Part shown: positions 40-19,727 of the stretch, piece after piece
How the letters are laid out: each line of letters opens with the position of its first letter
How positions within the stretch are numbered: position 1 is the first letter of the stretch
Assembly: GCF_035285525.1 (NCBI RefSeq)
Contig: NZ_JAYKGW010000233.1
Coordinates: forward strand, 1-19,774
Length of the DNA: 19,774 nucleotides
From: Okeania sp.
GTDB taxonomy: Bacteria > Cyanobacteriota > Cyanobacteriia > Cyanobacteriales > Microcoleaceae
Direction of reading: 5' to 3'
Made by a program: the position numbers and the translations under genes
The notes under the pieces: model-generated
What the model was told of the DNA's origin: nothing
Seen by the model: the letters and a program-made list of their open reading frames with translations, nothing else
Database searches by the model: none

Positions 40-2148
40 ATGACAGAAAAAATAAAAATTATAGAAATTGACGAAAAATCTCCCTATTTGCCAACTGTTA
101 TTGAGTTTGGTGATGCTAATAGAAAAACTCTAGGTTTTTTCCCTAGGCAAGCTTTTAAAGAACACGCAGAAAAAGGGCAAATAATTGTAGCTATTGAGTC
201 TAAAAAAAGTTGTGTTGGATATTTATTATATAGAATAGCAACTTCATATAATCGAGTTGGTATTATTCATTTATGTATTGCTGATTCTTATCAAGGTAAA
301 GGATTAGCTAAAAAGTTATTTGATTATCTAGTTGAGATTACTAAAGAAAAATATAGTGGTATTGGTTTAACTTGTCGTCGTGATTTTAATTTAAGTAATT
401 TCTGGTCTAAGCTAGGTTTTGTTTTTCAGTATGATAAACCAGCAAAAACTCCTGGAAAAACGAATGCTTATTGGTGGTTCGATCATCATCATTCAAATTT
501 GTTTTCTAATGCTACTACTCATCAACGTGAATACAAATTATATGTTGCGATAGACTCACAAATTTTCTTTGATTTCTATCATAGCGATCGCTATGATAAA
601 GACGCTGAATCTTTACTTTCTGATTGGTTATCTCCTGACTTACAGTTATGTTTGACCGATGAAATATTTAACAAAATAAATGTATTTTTTGACAATCAAG
701 ATGAGAGAAAGCATTTTACTAACCTAGCGAAAAAGCTCTTTACTATTTTATCAACCAATAAAATAGATTCCTCACAATATCAGTCTCTGAAAAATTTCTT
801 TAATCAAAAAAACATTAATATTAGTGAGTCTGATATTCGTTATATAGATAAAGCTATTACATCAGATGTTTACATTTTTGTTACTGGTAATAACAGTCTC
901 TTAGACATAGCAGATGAATTTTATGAACAATTTAATGTTTCTATTATTCATCCTAGAGATTTGATTTTTCAAGTGGATGAAATATGGAGGCAAACAGAAT
1001 ATCAGCCTGTTCGTTTAGCAGGTACTTTACTACAAAAAGCCCGTGTTACTTTAGGGCAAGAAAAGTTTTTAAATGAATATTTTAGAGCTGATAAATTGGG
1101 TGAAAAGAAGGCTGAGTTTCAACAAAAAATGCTTCGCTTTATTACAGAGACGGATAAATTTGATTGTTTTTTAGTTTTTGAAGGAGAAAAACAACCTTTA
1201 GCCTTAGTTGTTTATGATAGACGTAAAAAATATGAGTTAGAAATTCCATTAATGAGAGTTGTAGATACTTCTATAACTGCCACTATAGCTAATCATTTAG
1301 TTTTTGAATCTATATCAATTTCTGCCAAAGAAAAAAGAAATTTTACTAAGATAACAGATCTATTCTTGCCAGAAACAGTTATTAGAAATATTCATCAAGA
1401 TGGAACTTTTGTAGAATTTAACCATACTTACTTAAGAGCTAATATGGCTATAGCTAAAACAGCAAATCAACTATCAGAAGATTTAGAAAAATTAGCTGTT
1501 AGTCTCGGAAAAGAATATGATTTTTTTCGTAAAATATCTCAACTTCTTCAGAAAAAGCTAGAAAATGAAAATCAGCAAAAAGAATTATATTTTAATTTAG
1601 AGAAATACTTATGGCCGGCAAAAATAATTGATGCTAATCTGCCTACATGGATTATTCCTATTAAACCATTTTGGGCAAAAGATTTATTTGATGAAGAGTT
1701 AGCTAATAATTACTTATTTTGCTCTAAAACTGAGTTAGCACTTAAACGTGAACTTGTATTTTATCGTTCTAAAGGAGGTTTAAAACCTGGTATAATTGGT
1801 AGAATTATATGGTATGTCAGCAATGATGAAAAATTTCCATCCGGGACAACAAAAGTAATTAAAGCTTGTTCTCGATTAGATGAAGTTATAGTAGATAAAC
1901 CCGAAAAATTATATAGACAATTTCGTAATTTAGGTGTATATAAGTTAGAAGATTTAATAAAAATAACCAAGAATAAATCTAATGAAGATATAATGGCTAT
2001 TCGATTTAGTGATACTCAAATATTCACTAATTATATAACTTTAAAAGAACTTCAAGATATACTAAAAAAACAGATAACTGTTCAAGGAATTTTTAAAATA
2101 ACACCAGAACAATTTGCTAAAATATATGATAAAGCAAACAAAAATTGA
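40..2148 (+). CDS. Large multidomain protein: N-terminal GNAT N-acetyltransferase, PIN-like region, unassigned central region, ASCH/PUA-like C-terminal region. The GNAT call is solid; the other domains are tentative.
   Basis: An uninterrupted 702-codon ORF in very AT-rich DNA, with AAGGA 6 nt upstream of the ATG. Residues ~55-135 carry GNAT motif A (IHLCIADSYQGKGLAKKLFDYL, i.e. Q-x-x-G-x-G/A followed by a helix). Residues ~165-310 show PIN-like spacing of acidic residues (YVAIDSQIF, LTDEIF, SESDIRYIDKAI, IFVTGNNSLL). Residues ~535-690 (WIIPIKPFWAKDLF ... ELVFYRS ... GIIGRIIWYVS) mirror the strand order of the ASCH protein encoded immediately downstream (LLSIKPKYADKIF ... VELRR ... LVIVYVS ... 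AVVGYFKI). Confidence 0.75.
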   Translation: MTEKIKIIEIDEKSPYLPTVIEFGDANRKTLGFFPRQAFKEHAEKGQIIVAIESKKSCVGYLLYRIATSYNRVGIIHLCIADSYQGKGLAKKLFDYLVEITKEKYSGIGLTCRRDFNLSNFWSKLGFVFQYDKPAKTPGKTNAYWWFDHHHSNLFSNATTHQREYKLYVAIDSQIFFDFYHSDRYDKDAESLLSDWLSPDLQLCLTDEIFNKINVFFDNQDERKHFTNLAKKLFTILSTNKIDSSQYQSLKNFFNQKNINISESDIRYIDKAITSDVYIFVTGNNSLLDIADEFYEQFNVSIIHPRDLIFQVDEIWRQTEYQPVRLAGTLLQKARVTLGQEKFLNEYFRADKLGEKKAEFQQKMLRFITETDKFDCFLVFEGEKQPLALVVYDRRKKYELEIPLMRVVDTSITATIANHLVFESISISAKEKRNFTKITDLFLPETVIRNIHQDGTFVEFNHTYLRANMAIAKTANQLSEDLEKLAVSLGKEYDFFRKISQLLQKKLENENQQKELYFNLEKYLWPAKIIDANLPTWIIPIKPFWAKDLFDEELANNYLFCSKTELALKRELVFYRSKGGLKPGIIGRIIWYVSNDEKFPSGTTKVIKACSRLDEVIVDKPEKLYRQFRNLGVYKLEDLIKITKNKSNEDIMAIRFSDTQIFTNYITLKELQDILKKQITVQGIFKITPEQFAKIYDKANKN

Positions 2149-2164
2149 TCGGGATACTTCAATC

Positions 2165-2605
2165 ATGCCAAATACAGTTCTTTTATCTATAAAGCCAAAA
2201 TATGCTGATAAAATTTTCAAAGAGAGAACAAAAAAAGTTGAATTACGTCGTGTTTTTCCCGATCTAGATAAAGATGATTTAGTAATAGTTTATGTTTCAT
2301 CTCCTAAAAAAGCTGTTGTTGGTTACTTTAAAATCAAAAACATTATTAAAAAAGAAGTTTCTTATCTTTGGGATGAAGTAGAGGACAAAGCCGGAATTAC
2401 TTCTCAAGAATTTTACGATTATTATTCAGGAGTAAAGTTTGGCATAGGAATATTTTTCAAAAAAAGCAAGACCTTTAAAAAACCAGTCGAATTAGAAAAA
2501 CTAAGACAAGAATTGAAAAATTTTAGACCACCTCAAAGTTACCGTTATTTAAAACCCGATGAATGGGAAATTATTAAGAGATTAGTAGATTATGATTTTG
2601 AATAG
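2165..2605 (+). CDS. Stand-alone ASCH-domain (PUA-like fold) protein, ~146 aa
   Basis: MPNTVLLSIKPKYADKIFKERTKKVELRR ... LVIVYVSSPKKAVVGYFKI ... PPQSYRYL matches the characteristic ASCH layout (IKP-x-(Y/F)A-x-x-I, K-x-x-E-x-R-R, C-terminal PPQS-x-x-Y). I prefer the ATG at 2165 over the ORF-track start at 2114. The 2114 start would overlap the upstream gene by 35 nt and add 17 residues ahead of the first conserved strand. Confidence 0.8.
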   Translation: MPNTVLLSIKPKYADKIFKERTKKVELRRVFPDLDKDDLVIVYVSSPKKAVVGYFKIKNIIKKEVSYLWDEVEDKAGITSQEFYDYYSGVKFGIGIFFKKSKTFKKPVELEKLRQELKNFRPPQSYRYLKPDEWEIIKRLVDYDFE

Positions 2606-2628
2606 TTCAAAAATAAAAATAACTCTCT

Positions 2629-4254
2629 ATGGCAATTAAACAACTAACTTTATTTATACAACTTTTCCAGGAATTTGCTGATTCATATCCCTATAGTTCA
2701 GAAGGATTAAATCATAGAGCCTCTTATGAAAAACAACGTCAACAAGGTCGTCGGAATTTTGCAGAAATAACTACTGCTCTTAAGGAAGGGGAAGACATAA
2801 CTGAGTTGGTTAGATTCAAACTTTTGCCTCATACTGATACTCCTAAAAATCGACAAAGGGGTGCATGGATTCATAGGACGGAATCAAACAATATTGATTT
2901 AACTGAATGGTTTCAATGGTCTACAAATAAACCTTGGGAAAAGCAAGAATATTGGTCTGTTATTGCTAGAGAAATTTATATTTTTGTAACTTTATGCATT
3001 ACAGACGATCGGAAGTTTTTAGTAGCTTGTAAAAATTTTTCTAAGTTACCAAATACTGGAGGATTTAAAGTAGGAAAAATGACACCTATTCTGAATGCAC
3101 TAAAACCAGATAATTTTCTTTTAATTAATCAAAAATCAACGAAAGTAATTAATTATTTAAGTAACACAAAATATACTCAAGATTTAACTGAATACCCATA
3201 CATTAATCTCACTGGTCATAATCTAATTTTAGAATTAGCTAAAGAAATGCAGAAACAAAATATACCTGCTATGCGAGATGATGATTTGTTTGATATGTTT
3301 TGTTATTGGTTGGTAGATGTGAAAAAATATAATTTTCCTAGTGAAAATATTAACAATACAGACAATATTTATGAAACTAATCAGGATGAAAAAATCAATC
3401 GAACTGTAACTCATTTACAACCAGAATATACTCTAACTAAATGTTCCCAAGAAACCTGTTTTCCAGAAACAAAACTCGCTCAATGGATACGCGGTATCGA
3501 CCGCAAAAAACAAGCGATTTTTCAAGGTTCACCGGGTACAGGCAAAACTTTCCTCGCTCAAAAACTTGCTCAATATTTAACCAGTGAAGGTGACGGTTTC
3601 TGGGAAATCATTCAATTTCATCCTGCGTACACCTATGAAGACTTTATTCAAGGTATTCGACCACAGAGCGAAGATGGTAAACTCATCTATCCTGTTGTTC
3701 CAGGTCGCTTTCTGAAATTTTGTCAAAAAGCAGCACTTTGTCAAAATACTTGTGTACTCATTATAGATGAAATTAACCGCGCTAACCTTTCCCAAGTTTT
3801 CGGCGAACTTATGTATCTCCTGGAATACCGCGATGCAGAAATTTTCCTTGCCGGTAGTGAAGAATTATTCAGTATTCCGGAAAATGTTCGCATTATTGGC
3901 ACGATGAATACTGCCGATCGCTCTATCGCTTTAGTAGATCATGCACTTCGTCGTCGGTTTGCTTTTATCACTCTTTTTCCTAACTACGAAATATTGCGCC
4001 AATATCACGAAGAAATAGAAGAATATTTTCCAATAGAACAATTAGTTGAAATTTTAGAAGCAGTCAACCGAGAAATAAACGACCCTCACTATCAAGTCGG
4101 TGTTTCCTTCTTTCTCCGAAGAAATATTGAAGAGGAAATACAAGATATTTGGCAAATGGAAATTGAACCATATTTAGAGGAGTATTTTTTTGCTCAACCA
4201 GAAAAAGTCGATGAGTTTCGGTGGGATAAAATTAAATATTTAATGTTAGAATGA
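2629..4254 (+). CDS. mcrB: McrB-family AAA+ GTPase (type IV restriction motor subunit) with an unassigned ~270-aa N-terminal domain
   Basis: Walker A GSPGTGKT (nt 3526-3549). Walker B plus the McrB signature LIIDEINRANLSQVFGELMYLLEYR (nt ~3757-3830). IIGTMNTADRS and ALRRRF motifs follow. This combination is typical of the McrB/AAA_5 family. The gene starts 23 nt after the ASCH stop. Confidence 0.9.
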   Translation: MAIKQLTLFIQLFQEFADSYPYSSEGLNHRASYEKQRQQGRRNFAEITTALKEGEDITELVRFKLLPHTDTPKNRQRGAWIHRTESNNIDLTEWFQWSTNKPWEKQEYWSVIAREIYIFVTLCITDDRKFLVACKNFSKLPNTGGFKVGKMTPILNALKPDNFLLINQKSTKVINYLSNTKYTQDLTEYPYINLTGHNLILELAKEMQKQNIPAMRDDDLFDMFCYWLVDVKKYNFPSENINNTDNIYETNQDEKINRTVTHLQPEYTLTKCSQETCFPETKLAQWIRGIDRKKQAIFQGSPGTGKTFLAQKLAQYLTSEGDGFWEIIQFHPAYTYEDFIQGIRPQSEDGKLIYPVVPGRFLKFCQKAALCQNTCVLIIDEINRANLSQVFGELMYLLEYRDAEIFLAGSEELFSIPENVRIIGTMNTADRSIALVDHALRRRFAFITLFPNYEILRQYHEEIEEYFPIEQLVEILEAVNREINDPHYQVGVSFFLRRNIEEEIQDIWQMEIEPYLEEYFFAQPEKVDEFRWDKIKYLMLE

Positions 4255-4300
4255 AAAAATTAGATAGACAGTTATCAAAACATCTCTTTATGAATACAAT

Positions 4301-4543
4301 GAAGAAATAGAAGAATATTTTCCAATGGAAGAATTAATTAAAATTTGAGAATAAGTCAACTGATAAATAAACGATCCTCACTATCAAGTTGATGTTTCTT
4401 TCTTTCTCCGAAGAAATATTGAAGAGGAAATACAAGATATTTGGCAAATGGAAATTGAACCATATTTAGAGGAATATTTCTTTGCTCAAGCAGAAAAAGT
4501 AGATAAGTTTCGGTGGGATAAAACTAAATATTTAATGTCATAA
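4301..4543 (+). pseudogene. Decayed duplicate of the mcrB 3' end (equivalent to nt ~4009-4254)
   Basis: Direct nucleotide alignment by eye. The copy starts with the same GAAGAAATAGAAGAATATTTTCCAAT. It then has in-frame TGA/TAA stops (aaaatttgagaataagtcaactgataa). After that comes ~165 nt at roughly 90-95% identity, including a >70-nt identical run (ttctttctccgaagaaatattgaagaggaaatacaagatatttggcaaatggaaattgaaccatatttagagga). It ends in its own TAA. Confidence 0.85.
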
Positions 4544-4554
4544 TAAAAAAATTA

Positions 4555-4654
4555 CAGGACTTACGCATAAAACCTCATAAACCGGGTTTTTCGCCAATGT
4601 TTATTGTTAAAAACAAAGGTTATCCTAAAAAACCTGTTTCTTTGCGTAATTCCT
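4555..4654. mobile_element. MITE-like small dispersed repeat with imperfect terminal inverted repeats (caggacttacgca ... tgcgtaattcct)
   Basis: It shares its termini and the internal aaacc(n)ggttt hairpin motif with the 69-bp element at 9914-9982. Partial copies lie at ~19444-19480 and 19735-19765. Confidence 0.55.
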
Positions 4655-4724
4655 AAACTATATACACACTTATCCAAACATCCCCTACTGTAAAAAATCT
4701 CTGTTATAGCTGCCTTTTTCTAAT

Positions 4725-5939
4725 ATGAAATATCCCCAAATAATCGAACTTACTGAATATAAACTTCGCCAGTTTCCAGCAGATAAAATAAACTATGATA
4801 TTGGCACTAAATTATGGCAAGAATACGACGAAAAAGACAAAAAAATTAAAGTTGAATTTCCCACTCCCAAAACTAAAAACAAATGGCAATTTACTTCTCT
4901 AGGGTATGTGGGTTATATTCCCATAACTTCAGAATTTCATATCATTCTTAAACCAAAAGTACCGCTTCATAACCTATTTGGAATGTTGGAATATGCCTAC
5001 AATATCAAAAGTTTTTGTTTCCTAGATGGTTTAGTTAACTGCGATTCTCTACAGGAATTTTATAACTATTTAGTTAATATTCTAGCTCAAAAAATATTAG
5101 ACCGAGGTCGCAAAGGTTTTTATCGCGCTTATCTGCCAAAAACAGAAAATTTAACTTATATTCGGGGGCGATTAAATATGCAGCAAGTTATGCAAAAACC
5201 CTGGGATGTTAAGTTGAAATGCGATTATCAAGAACATACTGCTAATATTTCTGACAATCAAATTTTGGCTTGGACTTTATTTATTATTGGTCGTAGTGGT
5301 TTCTGTTCTGAAAAAGTCGCCCCAATAGTGGCAAAAGCTTTTCATCTATTGCAAGGTTTAGTAAATTTACAACCTTTTAAATCTAGGGATTGTGTAAATA
5401 GAAAATATCATCGTTTGAATCAAGACTATCAAACTTTACACGCTTTATGTCGATTTTTTTTAGATAATATTGGAGCTAGTCATCAACAGGGTAATTATTC
5501 AATGTTACCTTTTTTAATAGACATGGCTAAACTCTATGAAAAATTTGTAGCTGAATGGTTAAAAATTCATCTACCCTCAAATTTAAGACTTCAATATCAA
5601 GAAAGAGTAGATATTATTGACGATAAAATTTATTGTCAAATCGATCTAGTTATTTATGAAGTAAAAACTCATAAAGTTGTTTATATTCTTGATACTAAAT
5701 ATAAGTTAAATAGCAGACCATCCACAGATGATATTCATCAAGTAGTCGCTTATGCAACTTATAAAAAATGTCACCAAGCTATTTTGATTTATCCTCATAA
5801 ATTAACTAATCATATCAATCAATTAGTTGGTGAAAGTCAAGTCAGATTGCGTAGTTTGACATTTGCTCTCGACTCCGATCTGGAAAAAGCTGGTCAATCT
5901 TTTTTAGCAGAATTAATCAAATATAATGAACCACGTTAA
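4725..5939 (+). CDS. mcrC: McrC-family nuclease subunit (PD-(D/E)xK)
   Basis: A 404-aa ORF downstream of mcrB. The C-terminal nuclease motif is IDLVIYE (D at nt 5643) ... YILDTKYK (D-x-K at nt 5691-5705) followed by QVVAY, which is the arrangement typical of McrC. The size and the N-terminal region are also typical of McrC. Confidence 0.85.
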   Translation: MKYPQIIELTEYKLRQFPADKINYDIGTKLWQEYDEKDKKIKVEFPTPKTKNKWQFTSLGYVGYIPITSEFHIILKPKVPLHNLFGMLEYAYNIKSFCFLDGLVNCDSLQEFYNYLVNILAQKILDRGRKGFYRAYLPKTENLTYIRGRLNMQQVMQKPWDVKLKCDYQEHTANISDNQILAWTLFIIGRSGFCSEKVAPIVAKAFHLLQGLVNLQPFKSRDCVNRKYHRLNQDYQTLHALCRFFLDNIGASHQQGNYSMLPFLIDMAKLYEKFVAEWLKIHLPSNLRLQYQERVDIIDDKIYCQIDLVIYEVKTHKVVYILDTKYKLNSRPSTDDIHQVVAYATYKKCHQAILIYPHKLTNHINQLVGESQVRLRSLTFALDSDLEKAGQSFLAELIKYNEPR

Positions 5940-6447: not shown

Positions 6448-6537
6448 GTAACACAACCTTCCAGGTTGTTACAGTAAACCAAGGCTGTGTTACAGATGAC
6501 TTTACAGTAAACGAAGGCTGTGTTACAGATGACTGTA
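6448..6537. repeat. Hairpin repeat family 'GTAACACAACCTTCGGTGGTTGTTACAGCAAACGAAGGCTGTGTTAC' (degenerate copy with a duplicated second half)
   Basis: gtaacacaaccttccaggttgttacagtaaaccaaggctgtgttacagatgac is followed by tttacagtaaacgaaggctgtgttacagatgac. This is the same family as 16702-17000, 17224-17270 and 17319-17365. Confidence 0.8.
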
Positions 6538-6735
6538 CTTTACCATCCTCAAAATTTCTGTTATTAATAATTACAGCACTTACGCAAAGGCACTACATAA
6601 GGTGTATTGGTGCCTTACGAAGTGCGCTTTTCATGTCGCGCAGCGTTATCGTATAGGGACTGCTACGCTTTCCATGTCCGCTCAAGCGCGGAAAAAGCAC
6701 CCTACTGGACTATTTCATCGAAAATGGTGCATGGG

Positions 6736-6978
6736 GTAGGGGCGGGTTTATGGGTCGATTTTTATACTACTCTAAGGTTTAGACAAACCTCCCCGGGGGC
6801 CGGTTTGTCTAATTTCTAGATAAGAATCCTTAACTCACTGGTGATTTTTCGGGAACCTTAACCCGTCCCTACTGGACTGTTTCATCTTAAATGCTGCTTT
6901 AGGGAATCAGGATTGGTAGGGGTGGGTTTATGTAAATCTTAGAGTAGTATAAAAATCTCCTCAAAAACCCGCCCCTAC
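6736..6978. mobile_element. ~243-bp MITE-like element with ~43-bp imperfect terminal inverted repeats
   Basis: The left end is gtaggggcgggtttatgggtcgatttttatactactctaag. The right end is cttagagtagtataaaaatctcctcaaaaacccgcccctac, which is its reverse complement apart from a short central mismatch. An internal hairpin is agacaaacc...ggtttgtct. The segment ccctactggact(a/g)tttcatc...taggggYgggtttatg occurs both just outside the element (6697-) and inside it (6867-). Confidence 0.6.
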
Positions 6979-9101
6979 CGTGTCTTCCTAGTTTTTTCTG
7001 ATTTTGGGCAACAAAGTCCTTGAATAGCTGTAATTGCTACAGTATTAATAATATCCTCAACTTTACAACCGCGACTCAGATCGTTGACTGGTTTCTTCAA
7101 ACCTTGCAATATGGGTCCGATAGCGATCGCTCCTGTCTCTCTTTGCACTGCCTTGTAAGTATTATTTCCTGTATTCAAATCGGGAAAAACAAATACTGTT
7201 GCTTGTCCAGCAACTTGAGAATCAGGCATTTTCTGAGCTGCTACAGAAGCATCTACTGCTGCATCATATTGGATCGGACCTTCTAATAGTAAGTCTGGTT
7301 GCCGTTGTTTGGCGATCGCTGTTGCTTGACGGACTTTTTCGACTTCTTCTCCTTTTCCGGAAGCACCTGAAGAATAGGATAACAGAGCAACTTTGGGTTC
7401 AATGCCAAACATAGAGGCAGTTTCTGCGGAAGCTAAAGCTATTTCTGCTAATTCTTCGGGGTTGGGATGAGGATTAACTGCACAGTCTCCATAGACTAAA
7501 ACGTGATTTGGCAAACACATAAAAAAGACGGAGGAAACTAGAGAAAAACCTGGTTTAGTTTTAATAATTTGGAGTGCTGGTCTGATAGTATGTTGAGTTG
7601 TATGCACTGCACCGGAAACCATACCGTCAGCATCTCCACATTGAACCATCATTGTACCAAAGTAAGATACATCTCTCATGTAATCTTTAGCTGCATCCAG
7701 GGTTATGCCTTTATGTTTTCTGAGTTCATAGAAAGTTTCGGCATATTCCTGGAATTTCGGATGTTGGTTCGGTTCAATGATTTTGAGAGTGTTAGCATCT
7801 AAGTTAATGCCATTTTTTATGATAGAACTTTCAATGTTTTTGGGATTACCTAAGAGTGTTAAATTAACCATTTCTTGACTGAGAAGAAAGGACGCTGCTT
7901 GCAGAATACGAGGCTCTTCTCCTTCTGGTAAGACAATGTGCTTTTTGATAATTTTTGCTTGTTGATGCAAATTGTAAATAAACATTTTGGGAGTCATACC
8001 ATGATATTTAATTTCACGCAACCTGTTTTCTAATTTGGTGCCATCAACATACTTGCTAAATAATTCTAGACTCAAACTAATTTTTTCCATATCCCCGCCA
8101 ACAATGGAACCTATTACTTCTTTTGCTTGAGTAGCAGTAGTGTAAGTATCGGTTTCTACTGAGAGAATGGGTAGAGAATGAGGTAAACCATCAATTAATT
8201 TCAGAATTGATGGCGCAGGAGAAATACCTCCCGATAGCAAAATTCCTGCTAGAGAGGGATAGTTTTTCGAACGCTCTGCTTGTAACATTGCTAATATTAT
8301 GTCGCCGCGATCGCCAGAAGTAATGATTAATTGATCTTCTTGCAACCAATTTAAGGCATTAGAAACTTCCATTGCTGTTACTAAATAGTCAGACACAAGA
8401 TTATCTAATTTCTCTTTTCCATTTATTAAGGATGCTTTAAGTTGGGTTGCTATTTCCCTAACTCGTGGATTGTTAAGTTTGGAAGTATAAGGAATTACAG
8501 ACACTAAATAGTTGAGTTTTTGATATTTAGATATTAATATTTCTTTAAGTTCATTAACTTGTTCTGAGACAACTTTATTAACAACAATTCCCATTATTGG
8601 AAAATTTTTCTCTTGATAAGCATCTAGGGTAATTTTAATGGTACTGGTTATTTCTTCGATGCTTTTTTGATAACCATTAGTCAAGAGAATAATCGGACAA
8701 CCTAAATTTTTGACAATTTCCCGATTAATATCTAATTCCCAAGCTAAACTTCGACCTAAATAATCAGAACATTCGCAGAGAATAAAATCACAATTTGCTT
8801 CTAATGCTTTGTATTTAGTAATAATTTTCTCTAAAATTTGCTCATGTTGATGCTGATTAATAAGTTTAATTGCTTCGCTTTCTGATAAACCATAAGAGTC
8901 CTCAGAGTTTTGTTGCAAATTAAATTGAGTAATAATTAGGTCAATGTCTTTGTCTTTATTACCTGTTAATGTATCTCTAATCAAAGGTCGAAAAAAACCG
9001 ACTTTAGTTGTTTTTAGTAAAGCTTGTTCTATAATTCCTAATGATAGTAAAGCTTTACCACTGTATGCTTCAAGGGTAGCGATATAGAGAGATATTGTCA
9101 T
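6975..9101 (-). CDS. pta: Phosphate acetyltransferase, long form (N-terminal regulatory/DRTGG-type region plus C-terminal PTA_PTB catalytic domain)
   Basis: 708 aa, the length of E. coli-type Pta. The C-terminal half carries hallmark PTA segments (VYGDCAVNPHPNPEELAEIA, LLSYSSGASGKG, VFVFPDLNTGNNTYKAVQR, GPILQGLKKPVNDLSRG). Confidence 0.93.
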   Translation of the reverse strand: MTISLYIATLEAYSGKALLSLGIIEQALLKTTKVGFFRPLIRDTLTGNKDKDIDLIITQFNLQQNSEDSYGLSESEAIKLINQHQHEQILEKIITKYKALEANCDFILCECSDYLGRSLAWELDINREIVKNLGCPIILLTNGYQKSIEEITSTIKITLDAYQEKNFPIMGIVVNKVVSEQVNELKEILISKYQKLNYLVSVIPYTSKLNNPRVREIATQLKASLINGKEKLDNLVSDYLVTAMEVSNALNWLQEDQLIITSGDRGDIILAMLQAERSKNYPSLAGILLSGGISPAPSILKLIDGLPHSLPILSVETDTYTTATQAKEVIGSIVGGDMEKISLSLELFSKYVDGTKLENRLREIKYHGMTPKMFIYNLHQQAKIIKKHIVLPEGEEPRILQAASFLLSQEMVNLTLLGNPKNIESSIIKNGINLDANTLKIIEPNQHPKFQEYAETFYELRKHKGITLDAAKDYMRDVSYFGTMMVQCGDADGMVSGAVHTTQHTIRPALQIIKTKPGFSLVSSVFFMCLPNHVLVYGDCAVNPHPNPEELAEIALASAETASMFGIEPKVALLSYSSGASGKGEEVEKVRQATAIAKQRQPDLLLEGPIQYDAAVDASVAAQKMPDSQVAGQATVFVFPDLNTGNNTYKAVQRETGAIAIGPILQGLKKPVNDLSRGCKVEDIINTVAITAIQGLCCPKSEKTRKTR

Positions 9102-10180: not shown

Positions 10181-12607
10181 ATGGTCTCAACTCCAGACAG
10201 AACTGCTTCAATAAGTGCCTTTGGTCCAGCGCGTTCAACCATTGAAGGCACACCTCTGAGTCCTGATGAACTCTACAAAATGCAGGCTTTTTGGCGAGCT
10301 TCTTGCTATTTGATGGTAGGGATGATTTACCTAAAAAAGAATCCCCTGCTGCGGGAACCTCTGCAACCAGAACATATTAAGAGTCGAATTCTCGGACATT
10401 GGGGTTCAAGTTCTGGTCAAGCTTTCATCTGGATACATCTCAACCGAATTATTAAAAAGTTTGACCTCAATATGATATATCTCTCTGGTCCTGGACATGG
10501 CGCACCAGGGGTGTTAGCTCCAACTTATTTGGAGGACACTTATTCCGAGGTCTATCCTGACAAGAGTCAAGATGTAGAAGGTCTAGAAAAATTCTTTAAA
10601 CAGTTCTCTTTCCCTGGTGGTATTGGTAGTCACTGTACCCCAGAAACTCCAGGTTCCATCCATGAGGGGGGTGAACTTGGTTATGTACTTTCTCATGCTA
10701 CTGGTACAATTTTAGATAATCCAGATTTAATTTCTGTGCCAGTTGTGGGAGATGGGGAAGCAGAAACCGGGCCTCTGGCAACGTCTTGGCATTCCAATAA
10801 ATTTATCAATCCCATTACAGATGGTGCAATGCTACCAATCCTCCATTTGAATGGGTATAAAATTAACAACCCAACAATTTTATCTAGAATTAACCATGAA
10901 GATTTAAAAAATCTATTTTTGGGTTATGGTTATCAGCCATATTTTGTGGAAGGGTCTGACCCAGACAGTATGCACCAAGCAATGGCTGCCACCTTGGATC
11001 ACTGCGTTCAAGAAATCAAAGGTATTCAAGAGCAAGCACGAAATTCTGGTAACGCAGATTTGCCACGATGGCCGATGATTGTGTTCCGGACTCCTAAAGG
11101 ATGGTCATGTCCTGGAGAAATTGATGGACACAAAATCGAAGGTTTTTGGCGAGCGCACCAAGTACCGATGAAGGATGTGGCAAAAAATCCAGAACATCTC
11201 AAAATGTTGGAAGAGTGGATGCGTAGCTACAAACCAGAGGAACTATTTGATGAAAATGGTAAATTTAAACCAGAATTAAGAGAAATAGCTCCTTATGGTG
11301 CGCGTCGGATGAGTGCGAATCCTCATGCTAATGGTGGTATCCTCTGCAAGGATTTGAATCTGCCTAATTTCCGGGAATATGGTGCAGATGTAGATAAACC
11401 TGGAACTACAGAGGCAGAAAATACTCGTCCGTTGGGTGTGTTTCTCCGGGATGTTATGCGCAATAATATCAACAATTTCCGGGTATTCGGACCTGATGAA
11501 AATACTTCTAATAAACTGGATGCTATTTATGAAGTCAGTAAGAAGACTTGGATGGCAGAGTTTTTACCAGAAGATTTGGATGGTGGAGAACTGGCACGAG
11601 ATGGTCGCGTGATGGAAATGTTGAGCGAACACACTCTGGAAGGTTGGATGGAAGGATATGTGTTGACTGGAAGGCACGTCTTTTTTGCGACTTATGAGGC
11701 GTTTGTTCATGTAATTGACTCCATGGTAGGTCAACACGCGAAGTGGATTGAGAAGTGCAATGAGTTAAGTTGGCGTCAAAAGGTTCCTTCTTTGAATTTA
11801 TTGATTACTTCTACTGTTTGGCGACAAGACCATAATGGGTTTACTCACCAAGACCCTGGTTTCTTAGATGTGATTTCTAATAAGACTCCGGCGGTAACTC
11901 GGATTTATTTACCGCCTGATGTGAACTGTTTGTTATCGGTTGCTGACCACTGTTTGCGGAGTAAGAATTATGTTAATGTGATTGTTTCTGACAAACAGCA
12001 GCATTTGCAGTACATGGATATGGATGCTGCGGTTAAGCATTGTACTAAAGGTCTTGGTATTTGGGATTGGGCAAGTAATGATGATGGAGTAGAACCTGAT
12101 GTGGTATTGGCAACTGCTGGGGATATTCCGACTAAGGAAGCTTTAGCTGCTAATGTGATGTTACGGGAAGCTTTCCCTGACTTGAAGATTCGCTTTATTA
12201 ATGTGGTTGATTTATTTAAGTTACAACCGGATACAGAACATCCTCATGGATTGAGCGATCGCGAGTTTGATAGTTTGTTTACTCTGGATAAACCAATTAT
12301 CTTTAACTTCCACGGTTATCCTTGGTTGATTCACCGCTATACTTACCGTCGCACGAATCACGATAATCTCCATGTCCGGGGTTATAAGGAAAAGGGTAAT
12401 ATTAATACACCTTTGGAATTAGCGATTCGGAACAATATTGACCGCTTTAGTATTGCGATGGATGTGATCGAACGAGTTGATAAGTTAAAAGTTGCAGGCG
12501 CTCACGCGAAAGAACATTTCCGGAATGAGCAAATAGATTGTCAAAATTATGCTTATGAATATGGTGTTGACCGACCTGATATCGATAGTTGGAAATGGCC
12601 TTATTAG
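10181..12607 (+). CDS. xfp: Xylulose-5-phosphate/fructose-6-phosphate phosphoketolase (ThDP-dependent)
   Basis: 808 aa with the canonical phosphoketolase signatures [37 protein letters not shown] and [20 protein letters not shown] lies ~12 nt upstream of the ATG. Confidence 0.95.
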
Positions 12608-14044: not shown

Positions 14045-16675
14045 ATGTTAGTAAATAACGAACAACAACTCGAAGAACTAATACAAAGAGTAAAAATAGC
14101 ACAACAAAAATACGCTACTTATACTCAAGAACAAGTAGACTATATCTTCAAAAAAGCGGCCTTAGCAGCTAATGCAGCTAGGATTCCTCTAGCTAAAATG
14201 GCAGCCACAGAAACAGGTATGGGATTAATAGAAGACAAAGTAATTAAAAATCACTTTGCTTCAGAAATTATTTATAACAAATACAAAAACGAAAAAACCT
14301 GTGGAATTATCGAAGAAGACAAATCTTTTGGCTTTCAAAAAATTGCTGAACCTGTAGGAATTTTGGCTGGAATAGTTCCCACAACTAATCCCACCTCCAC
14401 AGCAATTTTTAAATCATTAATTACTCTCAAAACTCGTAACGCTATCATATTTTCTCCTCACCCCAGAGCTAAAAAATGTACTACCGCAGCAGCTAAAGTA
14501 GTTCTGGAAGCAGCAGTTGCAGCAGGAGCGCCAGAAGACATTATTGGTTGGATAGATGAACCAACATTACCTCTATCTCAACAACTGATGCAACACTCAG
14601 AAATTAAATTAATTCTGGCTACCGGTGGACCGGGAATGGTTAAAGCTGCCTATTCTTCTGGTCATCCATCCCTGGGAGTTGGTGCTGGTAATACTCCGGC
14701 TTTGATTGACGAAACCGCTGATATCAAAATGGCAGTTTCTTCAATTATTCTCAGCAAAACCTTTGACAATGGGATGATTTGTGCTAGCGAACAATCAGTC
14801 GTTGTAGTTGATAGTGTTTATGATACAGTCAAACAAGAATTTATTGATCGTGGCGCTCATTTTTTAACACCAGAAGAAAAAGATAAACTGCGGAGCAAAA
14901 TTATTGTCAACGGACGATTGAATGCAGAAGTAGTTGGGCAAACAGTACAAAAAATTGCGGAAATGGCTGGTTTCTCTATCCCAGAAACAACTAGGGTAAT
15001 TATTGGTGAAGTGGAAGATATCAATAAAGAAGAACCTTTTGCTTACGAAAAACTCTCTCCCATTTTAGCAATGTATCATGCAAGTACCTTTGAGGAAGCT
15101 GTAGACAAATCCGAAAGTTTAGTAGAATTTGGTGGACGCGGACATACCGCAGCTCTATATACTTCCCCTGCTAATACAGAGCATATTAAACGATTTGAAG
15201 ATACGGTGGAAACAGCAAGGGTTTTGATTAATACTCCTTCTTCCCAAGGAGCGATCGGCGATATCTATAATTTCCGTCTCGATCCTTCCCTAACTCTTGG
15301 TTGTGGAACTTGGGGTGGTAACTCTGTCAGCGAAAACGTTGAACCTCACCATCTTTTGAATATTAAAACAGTAGCAGAACGTCGGGAAAATATGTTATGG
15401 TTCCGCGTTCCCCCCAAAATTTACTTTAAATATGGAGCGTTACCTGTGGCGATGCGAGAGTTGGCAGGTAAAAAACGGGCGTTCGTTGTCACTGACAAAC
15501 CTATCTATGAACTGGGGATGACTCGTGGTTTAGAAAATGTCTTGGATGAACTTGAAATTAAATATGACATCTTTTATGATGTGGAACCCGATCCTTCTTT
15601 GGATACTGTGAACCGGGGTTTGGATTTGATGCGCAAGTTTAATCCTGATGTGATTATTGCTATCGGTGGAGGTTCGCCGATGGATGCTGCTAAAATTATG
15701 TGGTTAATGTACGAACATCCAGAAATTGAGTTTGAAGGTTTGGCAATGCGGTTTATGGATATCCGCAAACGGGTTTATGAGTTACCAGCTTTGGGTGAGA
15801 AAGCTATTTTGGTAGCAATACCTACGACTTCGGGTACAGGTTCAGAAGTTACGCCTTTTGCGGTGGTTACAGACCGCCAAAATGATATTAAGTATCCTTT
15901 GGCAGATTATGCTTTGACTCCTAGTATGGCAATCGTAGATCCAGAGTTGGTGTTAAATATGCCGAAAGGTTTGACTGCTTTTGGTGGTATAGATGCTTTG
16001 ACTCATGCGGTGGAAGCTTATGTTTCGGTCTTAGCTTCTGAATATACGAACGGTTTGGCGTTGAAAGCTATTGGATTAATTTTTAAATATCTGCCTTCTG
16101 CTTATAACAATGGTGCTAATGATCCTAAAGCACGAGAAAAAATGCACTATGCTGCCACTATTGCCGGGATGGCTTTTGCTAACAGCTTTTTGGGAATTTG
16201 TCATTCTATTGCGCACCAGTTAGGAGCTATTTTTCATGTTCCCCACGGTTTGGCAAATGCGTTGATGATTTCTCATATTATTCGTTACAATGCTACCGAT
16301 GCACCATTCAAACAAGCTACTTTTTCTCAGTATAAATATCCTAATGCTAAATGGCGTTATTCTCAAATTGCTGATTATTTATCATTGGGTGGAGAAACTG
16401 AGGATGAAAAGGTAGATTTATTGATTGCTGCTATTGAAGACTTGAAGAGTCAAGTAGGTATTCCCAAGGGAATCAAGGATGTGGTGTCAGTCAGTGAGGC
16501 CGAATTTTTTGCCAAGTTGGAAGATTTAGCAGATCAAGCTTTTGATGATCAATGTACGGGTTCCAATCCTCGTTATCCTTTGATTAGTGATATTAAGCAG
16601 TTGTTGACTAATGCTTATTATGGTGACTTAACTGGTTCGGAAGTGACAAGTAAGGAGGAAGCAGCAGTAGAATAA
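14045..16675 (+). CDS. adhE: Bifunctional acetaldehyde-CoA dehydrogenase / iron-dependent alcohol dehydrogenase
   Basis: 876 aa. The N-terminal ALDH domain has a catalytic Cys context (FDNGMICASEQSVVV). The C-terminal Fe-ADH domain has GGGSPMDAAK and the metal-binding ICHSIAHQLG...HVPHG. AGGA lies 8 nt upstream of the ATG. Confidence 0.95.
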   Translation: MLVNNEQQLEELIQRVKIAQQKYATYTQEQVDYIFKKAALAANAARIPLAKMAATETGMGLIEDKVIKNHFASEIIYNKYKNEKTCGIIEEDKSFGFQKIAEPVGILAGIVPTTNPTSTAIFKSLITLKTRNAIIFSPHPRAKKCTTAAAKVVLEAAVAAGAPEDIIGWIDEPTLPLSQQLMQHSEIKLILATGGPGMVKAAYSSGHPSLGVGAGNTPALIDETADIKMAVSSIILSKTFDNGMICASEQSVVVVDSVYDTVKQEFIDRGAHFLTPEEKDKLRSKIIVNGRLNAEVVGQTVQKIAEMAGFSIPETTRVIIGEVEDINKEEPFAYEKLSPILAMYHASTFEEAVDKSESLVEFGGRGHTAALYTSPANTEHIKRFEDTVETARVLINTPSSQGAIGDIYNFRLDPSLTLGCGTWGGNSVSENVEPHHLLNIKTVAERRENMLWFRVPPKIYFKYGALPVAMRELAGKKRAFVVTDKPIYELGMTRGLENVLDELEIKYDIFYDVEPDPSLDTVNRGLDLMRKFNPDVIIAIGGGSPMDAAKIMWLMYEHPEIEFEGLAMRFMDIRKRVYELPALGEKAILVAIPTTSGTGSEVTPFAVVTDRQNDIKYPLADYALTPSMAIVDPELVLNMPKGLTAFGGIDALTHAVEAYVSVLASEYTNGLALKAIGLIFKYLPSAYNNGANDPKAREKMHYAATIAGMAFANSFLGICHSIAHQLGAIFHVPHGLANALMISHIIRYNATDAPFKQATFSQYKYPNAKWRYSQIADYLSLGGETEDEKVDLLIAAIEDLKSQVGIPKGIKDVVSVSEAEFFAKLEDLADQAFDDQCTGSNPRYPLISDIKQLLTNAYYGDLTGSEVTSKEEAAVE

Positions 16676-16701
16676 TTAATAATTAGATAAGTTTCATTTG
16701 G

Positions 16702-17000
16702 TAGCACAACTTTCGGTGGTTCTTACAGCAAACGAAGGCTGTGTTACCTGTAGCACAACTTTCGGTGGTTCTTACAGCAAACGAAGGCTGTGTTACCTGT
16801 AGCACAACTTTCGGTGGTTCTTACAGCAAACGAAGGCTGTGTTACCTGTGGTACAAACTTCGGTGGTTCTTACAGCTTTGTTACAGCAAACGAAGGCTGT
16901 GTTACCTGTGGTACAAACTTCGGTGGTTCTTACAGCTTTGTTACAGCAAACGAAGGCTGTGTTACCTGTGGCACAAACTTCGGTGGTTCTTACACCGTAG
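16702..17000. repeat. Spacerless tandem array of hairpin units: 3 x 49 bp, 2 x 60 bp, and one partial unit
   Basis: 49-bp units start at 16702, 16751 and 16800 (tagcacaactttcggtggttcttacagcaaacgaaggctgtgttacctg). 60-bp units start at 16849 and 16909; they are the same unit with tggtacaaac in place of tagcacaact and an 11-bp internal insertion (gctttgttaca). A partial unit runs from 16969. The array starts 27 nt after the adhE stop. Confidence 0.9.
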
Positions 17001-17223
17001 ATTTAGGTTGGGTTGAGGTACGAAACAAGGGCAAAAATCTTTTCTCCTCTTTACCTTGGTCTTTATTTGAGGTTGATGAATAAAGTAGCGATCGCTTGTG
17101 TTCACAAGATTATCAGCTACTAAACAGGGATAATGGATAATTAGACAGATAACAATCCTAGTTTTATTTTTGCTAAAAATAAGCGAGAATTGCTATATTT
17201 TTCATTATTAATTATCAATATTA

Positions 17224-17270
17224 GTAACACAACCTTCGGTGGTTGTTACAGCAAACGAAGGCTCTGTTAC
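17224..17270. repeat. Dispersed copy of the GTAACAC...CTGTTAC double-hairpin element, embedded in ttaattatta-type AT tracts
   Basis: gtaacacaaccttcggtggttgttacagcaaacgaaggctctgttac. Confidence 0.85.
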
Positions 17271-17318
17271 AAATAACTATTAATTATTAATTATCCAAAA
17301 GGTTGTTAGTCATAATTA

Positions 17319-17365
17319 GTAACACAACCTTCGGTGGTTGTTACAGTAAACGAAGGCTCTGTTAC
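17319..17365. repeat. Second dispersed copy of the same double-hairpin element, ending 24 nt beyond the stop of the oxidoreductase gene
   Basis: gtaacacaaccttcggtggttgttacagtaaacgaaggctctgttac, which differs by 1 nt from the copy at 17224-17270. Confidence 0.85.
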
Positions 17366-17388
17366 AAATAATTATTAATTATTAGTTT

Positions 17389-19397
17389 CTATTTCCATTC
17401 ATCCCAAGAATTATTAAAAATAGAAGTTCCAGGAAAAGCAGTTGGATTCCCATTTTCCTGCAAAAAGCCTTGTAATTCCTCTAATTCCTTCTCTACCAAA
17501 GGAATTTCATCAACTAATTCATAAGGAAAAATACCCTTATCTAAAACAAAATCAATTGTTGTACCAGCAGCAGCACCAGCAGACCATTCAAAAGAATGAA
17601 CCCGATAAGCAGCAGCAGCAATATAACTCGTGGCAATAGTCTTTCCAGCTACCAACAAATTATCAATTTTTTGAGGAATCATTGCTCGTAAAGGAATTTG
17701 AAAAGGATAAGCAGAACCTTGACCTCTCCTAATACCTTCTCGTTCCCTATTACCTGGTGCTTCTGCTGGATTTTTGGTCATGCAAGGATGAAAATCTATC
17801 GCATAATGACCTATTCCTACGCTATCAGGAAACACAGTTGCTCTGACTCTTTGAGGAATATCTTCTGGTGACTTAGTGTCTACATTTTCCGCTATCAAAT
17901 TACCAACTACTTTTTGCAAAGACTCAAAACGCTCAGGTGATAAATTTTGCCGATAAAAATCATCCCGAAAATTCTTTTTGGCAATATCAACCTCATTTAC
18001 CATAAAACCATTGGGGCGAGTTTTCCCCACACGACCAATAATACGTCGCCCTTCCCGCATATAAGGATATTTCGATAACCCATGAGCTGTTCCCATGGGT
18101 GCATCAAACCCAGTTAAAAAACGATGGTTGGGATATTTTTTCTTCACCCCTTCCCCTAACTGGGAGTCGGTAGTTCCCTCAACCAACCAATAAAAATAAC
18201 CGAGAGCATTTTCTTCACCTCGACGGAGGGTTTCGGTGCGCAAACCTCCCATCCAACCACCTGGTTGCAGTTGCCCTGTAGCTTCCAGTTGCTTTCGACT
18301 ATAAATCAAGTTATCGTCTGGGTTTCCAGGGCGGTAGTCATTTCCCCAAGTCCAATTTTGCATGGAAATATCCCCAGGAAAAATAGTGCGTTCTTTGGCA
18401 CTAGGGGGTTGGGGTGCATCTGGTTCGACTGCCCAGATTTGCCGATATGTGAAAACTAAGTTGAAACTAGCTAATCTGGATAACTCATAACTATAGTAGG
18501 GAGCGTATATATCGTAAAATGGTGGTTTAATATGGGTTTGGGGTTTTTCGGTTGCCTCCATCGCGAAGGTGTAAGTAAAACCTTGAGTACAGTATGAGTC
18601 TGTACTGTCAACGGGCGATGAAGGGTTGAGGTGACTTTGGGGATCGATACCGAGACGATAAGGAACATCTGCTAGAGCAATAATTTCTCCGGTTTCGGTT
18701 GCTTCCACAACGTACCAGTCTGCACCACCTCTTTTTTCTGGAGATGGTTTGGGTACAAACTGAATTATGGTTTTATTAAATCTGGATGAGTTTTCGTAAC
18801 GGTAAGCATCTTCAATAGTTTGAGATAGGGGTTCCGTGTTTATGGGTGGAGTGTTTGGTGCTGGTTGATGTTGGATAGCGATCGCTCTGTTGATCTGATT
18901 ATTAGAAATGTCTAATTCTTTGACAACCGTATTAGGGAACCATTTTAATTCGCCTTTACCTTTTTTGGCAGCATCCTGTAACATCTGAAATAGAATACCA
19001 TGACCATCATAAGGCATAAAACAGGAGACACTGACCCAACAGTTGCCAGGATTTTGTCTACCATACTTTTTCTCAATGCGTTCCCGTAACTCTAGATAAC
19101 CACGGGGATAAAATAGGAGACTGCGTTGAGTTGGACGTTCGTCGAGAGCAGAAGTTCCTTGGGAGGAAATTTGACCGCCTACCCAGTCGGTAATTTCGGT
19201 CATACAAACGGTACGACCTGCTAATAGTGATTCGTAAGCGGTTGCTGCTCCTGCTAACCCACCACCGATGATTAAGATTTCGCAGGTTTCTTCTTGGTCT
19301 GGGGTACGAGGTGGTGCTGCTAAGGTGGGGGCGATAGTTGGAGTTAGGGAGAATATGCTGAGGATGAGACTAATTATTGGTTGTTTTTTTTTAGCAT
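17389..19397 (-). CDS. FAD-dependent oxidoreductase, probably secreted. The 5' end is either frameshifted relative to the ATG at 19397-19395 or uses a non-canonical start.
   Basis: The ORF-track start (19203) sits inside the protein. The same frame continues upstream, stop-free, to ~19404 and encodes ...ETCEILIIGGGLAGAATAYESLLAGRTVCMTEITDW... This is a classic beta-alpha-beta dinucleotide-binding GxGxxG motif (nt ~19240-19281), preceded by a hydrophobic signal-like segment (PIISLILSIFSLTPTIAPTLAAPP). That extension contains no ATG, GTG or TTG. An ATG at 19397-19395 is one base out of frame across an A9 run (19384-19392). Confidence 0.8.
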
Positions 19398-19496: not shown

Positions 19497-19727
19497 AATT
19501 GTGGGGGCGGGTTTAATCACAGATTTTCCTAGTTCATCCCATATTTACCTAAACCCGCCCTTTTTTCTACAACATCAAAATATGGTATTGGCAGGTTTAC
19601 ATATTATGGGGGCGGGTTTAATCACAGATTTTCCTAGTTAAACCCAGATTTACCTAAACCCGCCCTTTTTTCTACAACATCAAAATCTGGTATTGGCGGG
19701 TTTACATATTGTGGGGGGCGGGTTTAT
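19497..19727. repeat. ~105-bp tandem repeat (about 2.1 units). Each unit holds a gggcgggttta...taaacccgccc inverted repeat followed by a T-run.
   Basis: gggggcgggtttaatcacagattttcctagtt recurs at ~19503 and ~19608, with a third start at ~19713. The array is bracketed by direct repeats aaagaaaccgggtttctgggttcactaataata at 19456 and 19741. Confidence 0.8.

Follow-up and report, generated by a model that had tools for sequence, protein, structure and literature searches.

Near the start of a 19,774-nucleotide stretch of DNA from the cyanobacterium Okeania sp. (contig NZ_JAYKGW010000233.1 of assembly GCF_035285525.1; the whole stretch is called the window below) four open reading frames (ORFs) follow each other on the plus strand between positions 40 and 5939: ORF1, encoding a large protein with GNAT acetyltransferase, PIN and ASCH-like domains, ORF2, encoding a small ASCH protein, and the restriction genes mcrB and mcrC. 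Together they make up a four-gene cassette of cyanobacteria that is conserved and horizontally mobile. The ORF1–ORF2 pair is itself of an already known kind. What is new is its coupling, at the level of the operon, to McrBC, and to a McrB that appears, from comparison with its relatives, to have lost a reader or insert domain of its own. The near-exclusive relationship between the presence of the pair upstream of mcrB and the presence of an insert inside McrB is the strongest argument that the coupling is functional. The probability that ORF1 and ORF2 act in trans on behalf of McrBC, as suppliers of nucleic-acid or modified-base recognition and of a second effector, is put here at about one half.

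The relationship between pair and insert was established on pooled loci. An ORF1 alignment, used to scan a single genome of each species, had given 80 genome loci, and a reciprocal search, in which metagenome contigs were scanned with the helical N-terminal domain of McrB, gave 80 further ones; in these metagenome loci the ORF1–ORF2 pair is upstream in 26 and absent in 47. For genome and metagenome loci together the distance from the helical domain to the GTPase domain was measured locus by locus, with membership of the class without the pair requiring at least 600 nucleotides (nt) visible upstream. Of 86 McrBs preceded by the pair, 84 lack an insert ahead of the GTPase (median −4 residues relative to the window), the exceptions being L032 and L062 (+125 and +233 residues). 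McrBs without the pair carry an insert in 35 cases out of 36, its length ranging from 115 to 549 residues with a median of 353, and L095 is the sole insert-less member of that class. The inserts to which a name could be given are an EVE domain in L130 (Pfam E = 1.7e-11) and DUF2461 in L105, L113 and L114. In the McrB of the window a linker predicted with low confidence sits at the very position that pair-less relatives use for the insert. To judge by these distances, McrBs of this lineage would normally carry a variable domain just where the cassette McrB is empty.

Is there a reader in what remains of the N-terminal region? The AlphaFold2 model of the helical domain is all alpha, with a predicted local distance difference test (pLDDT) score of 83.5 and a predicted template modelling (pTM) score of 0.81, and neither in its sequence nor in this predicted fold does it seem to resemble any known modified-base reader. 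Residues 1–265 of McrB have no Pfam match and the N-terminal domain has no match among PDB sequences; its best Foldseek result (E = 0.36) was to HhH-GPD glycosylases, with template modelling (TM) scores of 0.47 or below, and is not used as evidence. A modified-DNA specificity domain (DUF3578/ADAM, EVE, YTH or similar) was detected on this McrB by none of Pfam, PDB-sequence comparison and Foldseek. A homologue search with the N-terminal domain alone returned six proteins, and it was repeated using full-length McrB. Precomputed Pfam annotations place PF28529 on McrB homologues (e.g., P0312 and P0333) and PF28530 on the longer, insert-bearing ones.

The remainder of McrB, and McrC, leave the identification of a type IV restriction core made in the first-pass annotation of this DNA in place. 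McrB matches AAA_5 (E = 7e-22) and the NCBIfam McrB model (E = 1.5e-47, under the equivalog cut-off), and McrC matches PF10117 (E = 2.6e-41) and the NCBIfam McrC model (E = 1e-28, likewise under its equivalog cut-off); the Walker A motif of the one and the D...D-x-K motif of the other are present. In an alignment of 57 full-length homologues the GTPase motif columns of McrB are at least 90% conserved, and the catalytic motifs of GNAT, McrB and McrC in the window are all intact.

Conservation of the four-gene order is extensive. In all but one of the 80 genome loci ORF2 lies directly 3′ of ORF1, and in 61 of the 80 a McrB with the same helical N-terminal domain and then McrC follow in matching order, all four ORFs being intact in 45. 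The median gaps between ORF1 and ORF2, ORF2 and mcrB, and mcrB and mcrC are 10, 51 and −4 nt, the corresponding spacings in the window being 16, 23 and 470 nt. Genera with the cassette include Trichodesmium, Okeania, Nostoc, Anabaena, Scytonema, Planktothrix, Microcoleus, Hormoscilla and Crocosphaera. The first-pass annotation had proposed a composite defence operon from four same-strand genes with 16- and 23-nt gaps, and had staked that proposal on synteny of ORF1 and ORF2 with McrBC in other genomes; the ORF coordinates bear out the former, and the ordered loci, with their tight or overlapping gaps and their origin in one clade, the latter. In a neighbour-joining tree of ORF1 every McrBC-linked copy falls in one cyanobacterial clade; stand-alone pairs (of Scalindua, Verrucomicrobiota and some cyanobacteria) lie mostly outside it, with one from Spirulina (L075) inside. 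Because the McrBC-linked ORF1s form a single clade that extends across many genera, the link between the pair and McrBC arose rarely and was then kept.

Comparison of Okeania with Trichodesmium gives an indication of the unit that moves. Identity is 30–68% for residues 1–530 of ORF1 and 86–96% for its residues 551–700, and it is 83–91% for ORF2, 78–86% for McrB and 84–89% for McrC. A recombination breakpoint is located inside ORF1, at about residues 520–550 (window 40–2148 compared with L004 10001–12103 and L082 4152–6263), and since identity is high from the ASCH end of ORF1 onward, the ASCH domain, ORF2 and McrBC have been co-inherited as one block. A complete cassette is carried by the mobilizable plasmid pCAL6303.01 of Calothrix sp. 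PCC 6303 (L161, 4808–12512), where it comes directly after a type II restriction-modification system (a DNA cytosine methyltransferase plus an endonuclease of the Eco29kI family) and has a tyrosine recombinase nearby. This suggests that the target of the McrBC of that plasmid is not simply the methylcytosine made by the neighbouring cytosine methyltransferase. In the window the guanine plus cytosine (G+C) content is 28–31% in the first 6 kb, which hold the cassette, compared with ~40% in the housekeeping genes downstream, and such a low value fits an islet acquired by horizontal transfer.

A fifth conserved gene, upstream of the other four, was considered and rejected. The recurrent neighbours there are either the divergent housekeeping gene ileS (encoding isoleucyl-tRNA synthetase with a CAAD domain), found in 18 loci of many different genera, including L002, L003 and L004, or a small PD-(D/E)XK_3 (PF13366) gene directly upstream of ORF1, found in 10 loci only.

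The long gap between mcrB and mcrC in the window is scarred. It contains a degenerate direct repeat of the 3′ end of mcrB, followed by an imperfect palindrome that has no Rfam match, recurs at the matching place in L001 and L022, and is possibly a small mobile repeat. Relatives from Okeania and Dapis (L002, L003 and L022) have two to six copies of a junction between the 3′ end of mcrB and the 5′ end of mcrC (43 codons), in regions 14540–17940 of L002, 14540–18290 of L003 and 11940–14400 of L022. L002 adds a second mcrB-like ORF in which the GTPase is near-identical and the N-terminal region different, and in L003 and L022 the GTPase domain occurs twice. With these for comparison, the gap in the window looks like a collapsed stack of alternative mcrB cassettes that shared one mcrC, left behind as a scar. 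This gap, an additional alpha/beta domain in ORF1 and, most telling, the reader-less McrB are features beyond those given in the first-pass annotation.

The protein encoded by ORF1 has, from its N to its C terminus, GNAT, PIN, alpha/beta and ASCH-like domains, and its AlphaFold2 model, made with 70 homologues, has a mean pLDDT of 86. At least 1349 cluster representatives (50% identity) match the ORF1 profile at E<1e-30, and the best 150 of these matches are mostly ~700 residues long with nearly the full profile covered; judged by such matches, the ~700-residue architecture is very common. Residues 33–130 match Pfam Acetyltransf_10, Acetyltransf_1 and Acetyltransf_7 with E values from 1e-9 to 5e-8, and Foldseek comparison of the model with the PDB gave GNATs, including Ard1 (4pv6) and Naa50, at TM ~0.8. 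The acetyl-CoA loop is Q85-G-K-G-L-A90 (nt 292–309), for which the family consensus is RGxGxA, and G88 hardly varies among the aligned family members. The PIN match is weak in the window copy (E = 0.04 with full ORF1; PIN_3 at E = 0.005 with the excised region), and a PDB sequence-profile search with this PIN gave no meaningful match; among 30 family members PIN_3 is found in 18 (best 5e-7), PIN_12 in seven and PIN in four. Two of the PIN acids, D172 and E208, are nearly invariant across the family alignment. The third canonical one (T282-x-D) varies, its position being taken by N284 in the window copy.

The central domain occupies the position that GNAT has in PIN-GNAT-EVE proteins, and the order of strands and helices in its AlphaFold2 model is GNAT-like. 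Acetyltransf_1 matches it in just one of the 30 family members (4e-4), and a sequence-profile search gave no PDB match for it. Because hhalign of this domain against the N-terminal GNAT of ORF1 returned a probability of 0.2%, it is not called a GNAT here. At the other end, hhalign shows the C-terminal ~170 residues to be homologous to ORF2 (96.5%, E = 7e-10), and they also match ZmASCH in Foldseek (5y6c and 5guq, TM 0.73–0.81) and the C terminus of the PADLOC model PDC-M11A (E = 2.7e-7); a Pfam scan of this domain gave no EVE match. W591, Y592 and S594 of the domain show little or no variation. The PDC-M11A model PDLC04421 is colinear with the PIN and C-terminal PUA-like domains of members of the ORF1 family, positions 2–160 of the model aligning to residues 166–327 of the family. 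ORF1 reads as a PDC-M11A-like PIN-(GNAT)-PUA protein with an extra GNAT at its N terminus, and the GNAT, PIN-like and ASCH-like regions that had been noticed at first sight of the sequence are all accounted for. In a phage collection tblastn with ORF1 found no match, and Foldseek against viral structures retrieved, apart from generic GNATs, a single small protein without a name.

For ORF2 the Pfam ASCH match (E = 1e-3) is slightly below the gathering score. However its family profile, when compared with the PDB, matches ZmASCH (5GUS/5GUQ) at E = 2e-26 with the whole protein covered, and PADLOC PDC-M11B matches it at E = 8e-36, as befits the stand-alone ASCH protein that it had been taken to be. 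The mechanically called ORF opens earlier than the ATG from which it is counted here, at TTG 2114. ZmASCH residues Tyr47, Lys53 and Ser128 correspond to Y43, K49 and S125 of ORF2 and, with residues kept that contribute to nucleic-acid binding in ZmASCH, the ASCH domains of ORF2 and of the ORF1 C terminus look functional. ZmASCH, from Zymomonas mobilis, was studied in isolation and is a nucleic-acid binder with a reported Mg-dependent nuclease activity on single-stranded RNA (Kim et al. 2017, PMC5615036). The ASCH protein brought in for comparison in the first-pass annotation was E. coli YqfB (about 103 residues, PDB 1TE7), and that choice did not survive: the nearest solved relative of ORF2 is ZmASCH, YqfB is absent among the eight PDB chains matched at E≤1, and the idea of ORF2 as a YqfB-like amidohydrolase was rejected.

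How might a McrB without a reader be directed to its target? On the proposal favoured here, the ASCH domains of ORF1 and ORF2 would recognise nucleic acid or a modified base in trans, and would thereby either mark the target for the reader-less McrB–McrC motor-nuclease or license it, with cutting of invading DNA as the outcome. The GNAT and PIN of ORF1 would add a second enzymatic output, namely acetyl transfer, RNA cleavage or both.

Several considerations weigh against such a partnership. The pattern of exclusivity has its exceptions (L032, L062 and L095), and it does not amount to 86 independent events because the pair-linked McrBs come from loci of one ORF1 clade. McrBs with this N-terminal domain are common without the pair, and about ten assessable loci have ORF1–ORF2 without McrBC and then convergent unrelated genes. 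Stand-alone pairs are followed by a convergent mrr gene in L059 (11232–12140, minus strand), L070 (12647–13555, minus strand) and L080 (3092–4003, minus strand), Mrr_N and Mrr_cat being Pfam-confirmed in L059 and the proteins of L070 and L080 near-identical by eye. (In L059 and L070 a thymidylate-synthase-like/DUF4346 protein is encoded directly upstream of the pair.) In Prevotella sp. oral taxon 299 (L162, 671–9438) a 685-residue ORF1-like protein (27.5% identity, 93% of ORF1) and a 148-residue ASCH protein are encoded directly behind three other proteins, an Eco57I/MmeI-like restriction-modification enzyme, an ATPase (SMC/AAA_23) and an HNH protein; the genes share one strand and are 1–7 nt apart, and the cluster adjoins the VapE-like and Toprim-like (primase-type) genes that belong to a mobile element. 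As the pair and McrBC are each found apart, both modules can work alone, and adjacent defence genes are often independent. In the window itself the scar of 470 nt parts mcrC from mcrB, with expression of mcrC here not assured, and the PIN is without one canonical acid. The reported activity of ZmASCH is on single-stranded RNA, not on modified DNA (PMC5615036). An interaction of ORF1 or ORF2 with McrBC, a ligand for the pair and an acceptor for the GNAT are inferred only.

A rival explanation is that two independent modules have merely been inherited together, a self-contained PDC-M11-like pair and a self-sufficient McrBC with the helical N-terminal domain as its DNA-binding or specificity domain, brought side by side by one ancestral juxtaposition as a mini defence island. 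That the pair occurs alone, beside Mrr or beside a type IIG restriction-modification, ATPase and HNH cluster fits such a history, as do the widespread McrBs with the same N-terminal domain and no pair, the reader-less and yet pair-less L095, and the pair-linked and yet insert-bearing L032 and L062. With the McrBC-linked ORF1s forming one clade, the association may go back to one past event, and Bell et al. 2020 (PMC7641849) place pairs of this type beside several unrelated defence systems. However, the operon-like spacing is maintained across many genera, with the 45 loci fully intact, and it is where the pair is present that the insert domain has been lost. Further, the ASCH domain, ORF2 and McrBC were co-transferred, with the breakpoint within ORF1 and not between the modules, and the helical N-terminal domain is without significant match to a known DNA-binding or base-reading fold. 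On balance mere co-inheritance is judged somewhat unlikely.

An improbable explanation is that a toxin–antitoxin or abortive-infection pair is attached to McrBC, ORF1 being the toxin, through its GNAT acting on aminoacyl-tRNA or some other essential target, through its PIN as an RNase, or through both. ORF2 would then restrain ORF1 or sense infection, and it is similarly improbable that the pair would only stabilise the island or back up failed restriction, with no part in directing McrBC. GNAT and PIN domains are common toxins, the acetyl-CoA loop and D172 and E208 of the PIN are conserved, the cassette is found on plasmids and in low-G+C islets, and it is as toxins that Bell et al. 2020 (PMC7641849) read (PIN)-GNAT-EVE plus ASCH operons. 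However, ORF1 with its 702 residues and four domains contrasts with a GNAT toxin of ~170 residues, no antitoxin match of RHH/DUF1778 type was found, ORF2 being a predicted ASCH nucleic-acid binder instead, the third PIN acid differs among family members and is missing from the window copy, and the insert-less state of the linked McrB is left unexplained. A classical type II GNAT toxin–antitoxin system, of AtaT/TacT/ItaT type, was rejected in view of the four-domain ORF1, the ASCH neighbour and the lack of a DUF1778/RHH match. Distinctly improbable is a scheme of writing, reading and cutting, in which the GNAT puts an acyl mark such as N4-acetylcytosine on invader DNA or RNA, ASCH reads it and McrBC cleaves or, conversely, self DNA is marked and so protected. 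Restriction would then be directed, and this is held to be just as doubtful, by a mark written by the host, not by a modification borne by the phage, McrBC having given up its own reader. GNAT and ASCH domains do share an operon with a modification-dependent nuclease, the linked McrB is without a reader of its own, the ASCH proteins YqfB and EOLA1 act on N4-acetylcytidine (reviewed in PMC12707154), and acetylation of DNA bases was proposed for GNAT-EVE proteins by Iyer et al. 2013, as related by Bell et al. 2020 (PMC7641849). Yet acetylated bases are not in evidence in these organisms, ORF2 resembles ZmASCH and not YqfB, the sequence offers no evident rule for telling self from non-self, and the pair also accompanies unrelated restriction systems that are independent of modification. 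Both lines of thought, an acetyl mark that would gate McrBC and a GNAT/PIN toxin coupled to restriction, had been offered as hypotheses in the first-pass annotation.

If recognition is indeed provided in trans, as favoured here, type IV restriction enzymes can outsource recognition of their targets, and there would be a handle on what the GNAT acetylates. The cassette yields a prediction that can be falsified, namely that the ASCH proteins provide specificity in trans, and with the pair locked into one operon with a McrBC that seems to have lost its reader the output is simple to assay, being restriction of DNA or phage. If the proposal is not true, what is left is a well-defined defence islet of two modules, found widely among cyanobacteria that form blooms or live in symbiosis (Trichodesmium, Okeania, Nostoc, Planktothrix and Microcoleus). 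In either case the cassette is a direct experimental handle on a widespread and still uncharacterised family of gene pairs. PUA-like domains are already known to associate with restriction systems, and the cassette would not astonish a specialist.

The coordinates of the features are collected in the following table. The genes downstream of the cassette are a fermentative acetyl-phosphate cluster with no relation to defence. Intergenic tandem and dispersed repeats at 6469–6538, 16701–16994, 17220–17417 and 19498–19726 have a common core, ...CTTCGGTGGTT(C/G)TTACAGCAAACGAAGGCTGTGTTAC..., in units of 33, 49–60 and 95 nt, and there is a distinct 105-nt tandem repeat at the window end; the intergenic repeats are probably lineage-specific non-coding repeat families. 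Scans of the window for tRNAs, Rfam families, promoters and terminators gave nothing above background.

Features of the window, with positions counted from its first nucleotide
Feature	Position	Strand	Remarks
ORF1	40-2148	+	702 residues; GNAT-PIN-alpha/beta-ASCH-like multidomain protein
ORF1 N-terminal GNAT	40-489	+	residues ~1-150; Pfam and Foldseek
ORF1 PIN-like domain	532-999	+	residues ~165-320
ORF1 central alpha/beta domain	1015-1449	+	residues ~326-470; well folded in model
ORF1 C-terminal ASCH-like (PUA-like) domain	1627-2148	+	residues ~530-702; paralogue of ORF2
ORF2	2165-2605	+	146 residues counted from ATG; stand-alone ZmASCH-type ASCH protein, matches PDC-M11B
mcrB	2629-4254	+	541 residues
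McrB N-terminal all-helical domain	2629-3333	+	residues ~1-235
McrB low-confidence linker	3334-3432	+	residues ~236-268; pLDDT <50 at 239-265
McrB AAA+ GTPase domain	3433-4254	+	Pfam, NCBIfam and motifs
McrB Walker A GSPGTGKT	3526-3549	+	
McrB Walker B LIIDEINR	3757-3780	+	
McrB MNTADRS	3904-3924	+	
McrB RRRF	3949-3960	+	
Degenerate direct repeat of mcrB 3′ end	4293-4554	+	262 nt, 90% identical to 4001-4262
Imperfect palindrome	4556-4654		~100 nt, 17-nt arms; in mcrB-mcrC gap
mcrC	4725-5939	+	404 residues; McrBC-family protein with PD-(D/E)xK nuclease motif
McrC nuclease motif	5640-5657; 5688-5705	+	D308 in the former; D323-T-K325 in the latter
pta	6975-9101	-	with DRTGG and AAA_26 domains
Phosphoketolase (XFP)	10181-12607	+	
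Bifunctional aldehyde/alcohol dehydrogenase (AdhE-like)	14045-16675	+	
FAD-dependent oxidoreductase	17389-19203	-	

How does the cassette compare with systems already described? To judge from its domains, the ORF1–ORF2 pair is distantly related to the (PIN)-GNAT-EVE plus ASCH operons, which correspond to PADLOC candidate PDC-M11, and is extended at the N terminus. Bell et al. 2020 (PMC7641849) give an account of (PIN)-GNAT-EVE proteins that adjoin an ASCH protein, often beside type I restriction-modification, attribute the first computational description of such pairs to Iyer et al. 2013, and state that no domain of them has been characterised experimentally. A literature search found no paper testing (PIN)-GNAT-PUA plus ASCH pairs, and one by the name PDC-M11 found no description of the system. 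The first-pass annotation had not recognised the four-gene combination as a described system. For the ORF1–ORF2 pair this does not hold, given PDC-M11, the account by Bell et al. and what is reported there of Iyer et al.; for the coupling to McrBC it stands, as the account of the pairs by Bell et al. (PMC7641849) connects them neither to McrBC nor to cyanobacteria, and a census of McrBC systems (PMC11090510) mentions neither ASCH nor GNAT. The likeness to PDC-M11 consists of a large protein with PIN, central and C-terminal PUA-like domains followed by a small ASCH protein, of the identity of ORF2 as component B, adjacent in nearly every locus, and of the finding of both kinds of pair beside restriction systems. 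In contrast to the (PIN)-GNAT-EVE proteins, ORF1 has an additional N-terminal GNAT, with its acetyl-CoA loop intact, ahead of the PIN, its central domain is not recognisable as a GNAT, and its C terminus is an ASCH-like paralogue of ORF2 with no Pfam EVE match; its match to PDC-M11A is weak and partial. The cassette is also without the AAA_17 ATPase, and the partner of its pair is McrBC and not type I restriction-modification. ORF2 is joined to ZmASCH by the strong profile match and the three conserved residues, and differs from it in lying in a restriction operon.

With McrBC of E. coli K-12 the cassette shares the two-gene core of GTPase and nuclease, recognised by the same two NCBIfam models under their equivalog cut-offs, and it differs in being without the DUF3578 domain that binds 5-methylcytosine and in having two extra genes upstream. 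With the EVE-McrB and YTH-McrB systems it has in common the GTPase of McrB and the PD-(D/E)xK nuclease of McrC, both complete in their signature motifs, as well as a PUA-superfamily domain in the operon; L130, a close relative with the same helical N-terminal domain, has EVE fused in cis. In those systems the reader is part of McrB, whereas the PUA-like domains of the cassette are on two separate upstream proteins, one of them also with GNAT and PIN, and its McrB keeps just the helical N-terminal domain.

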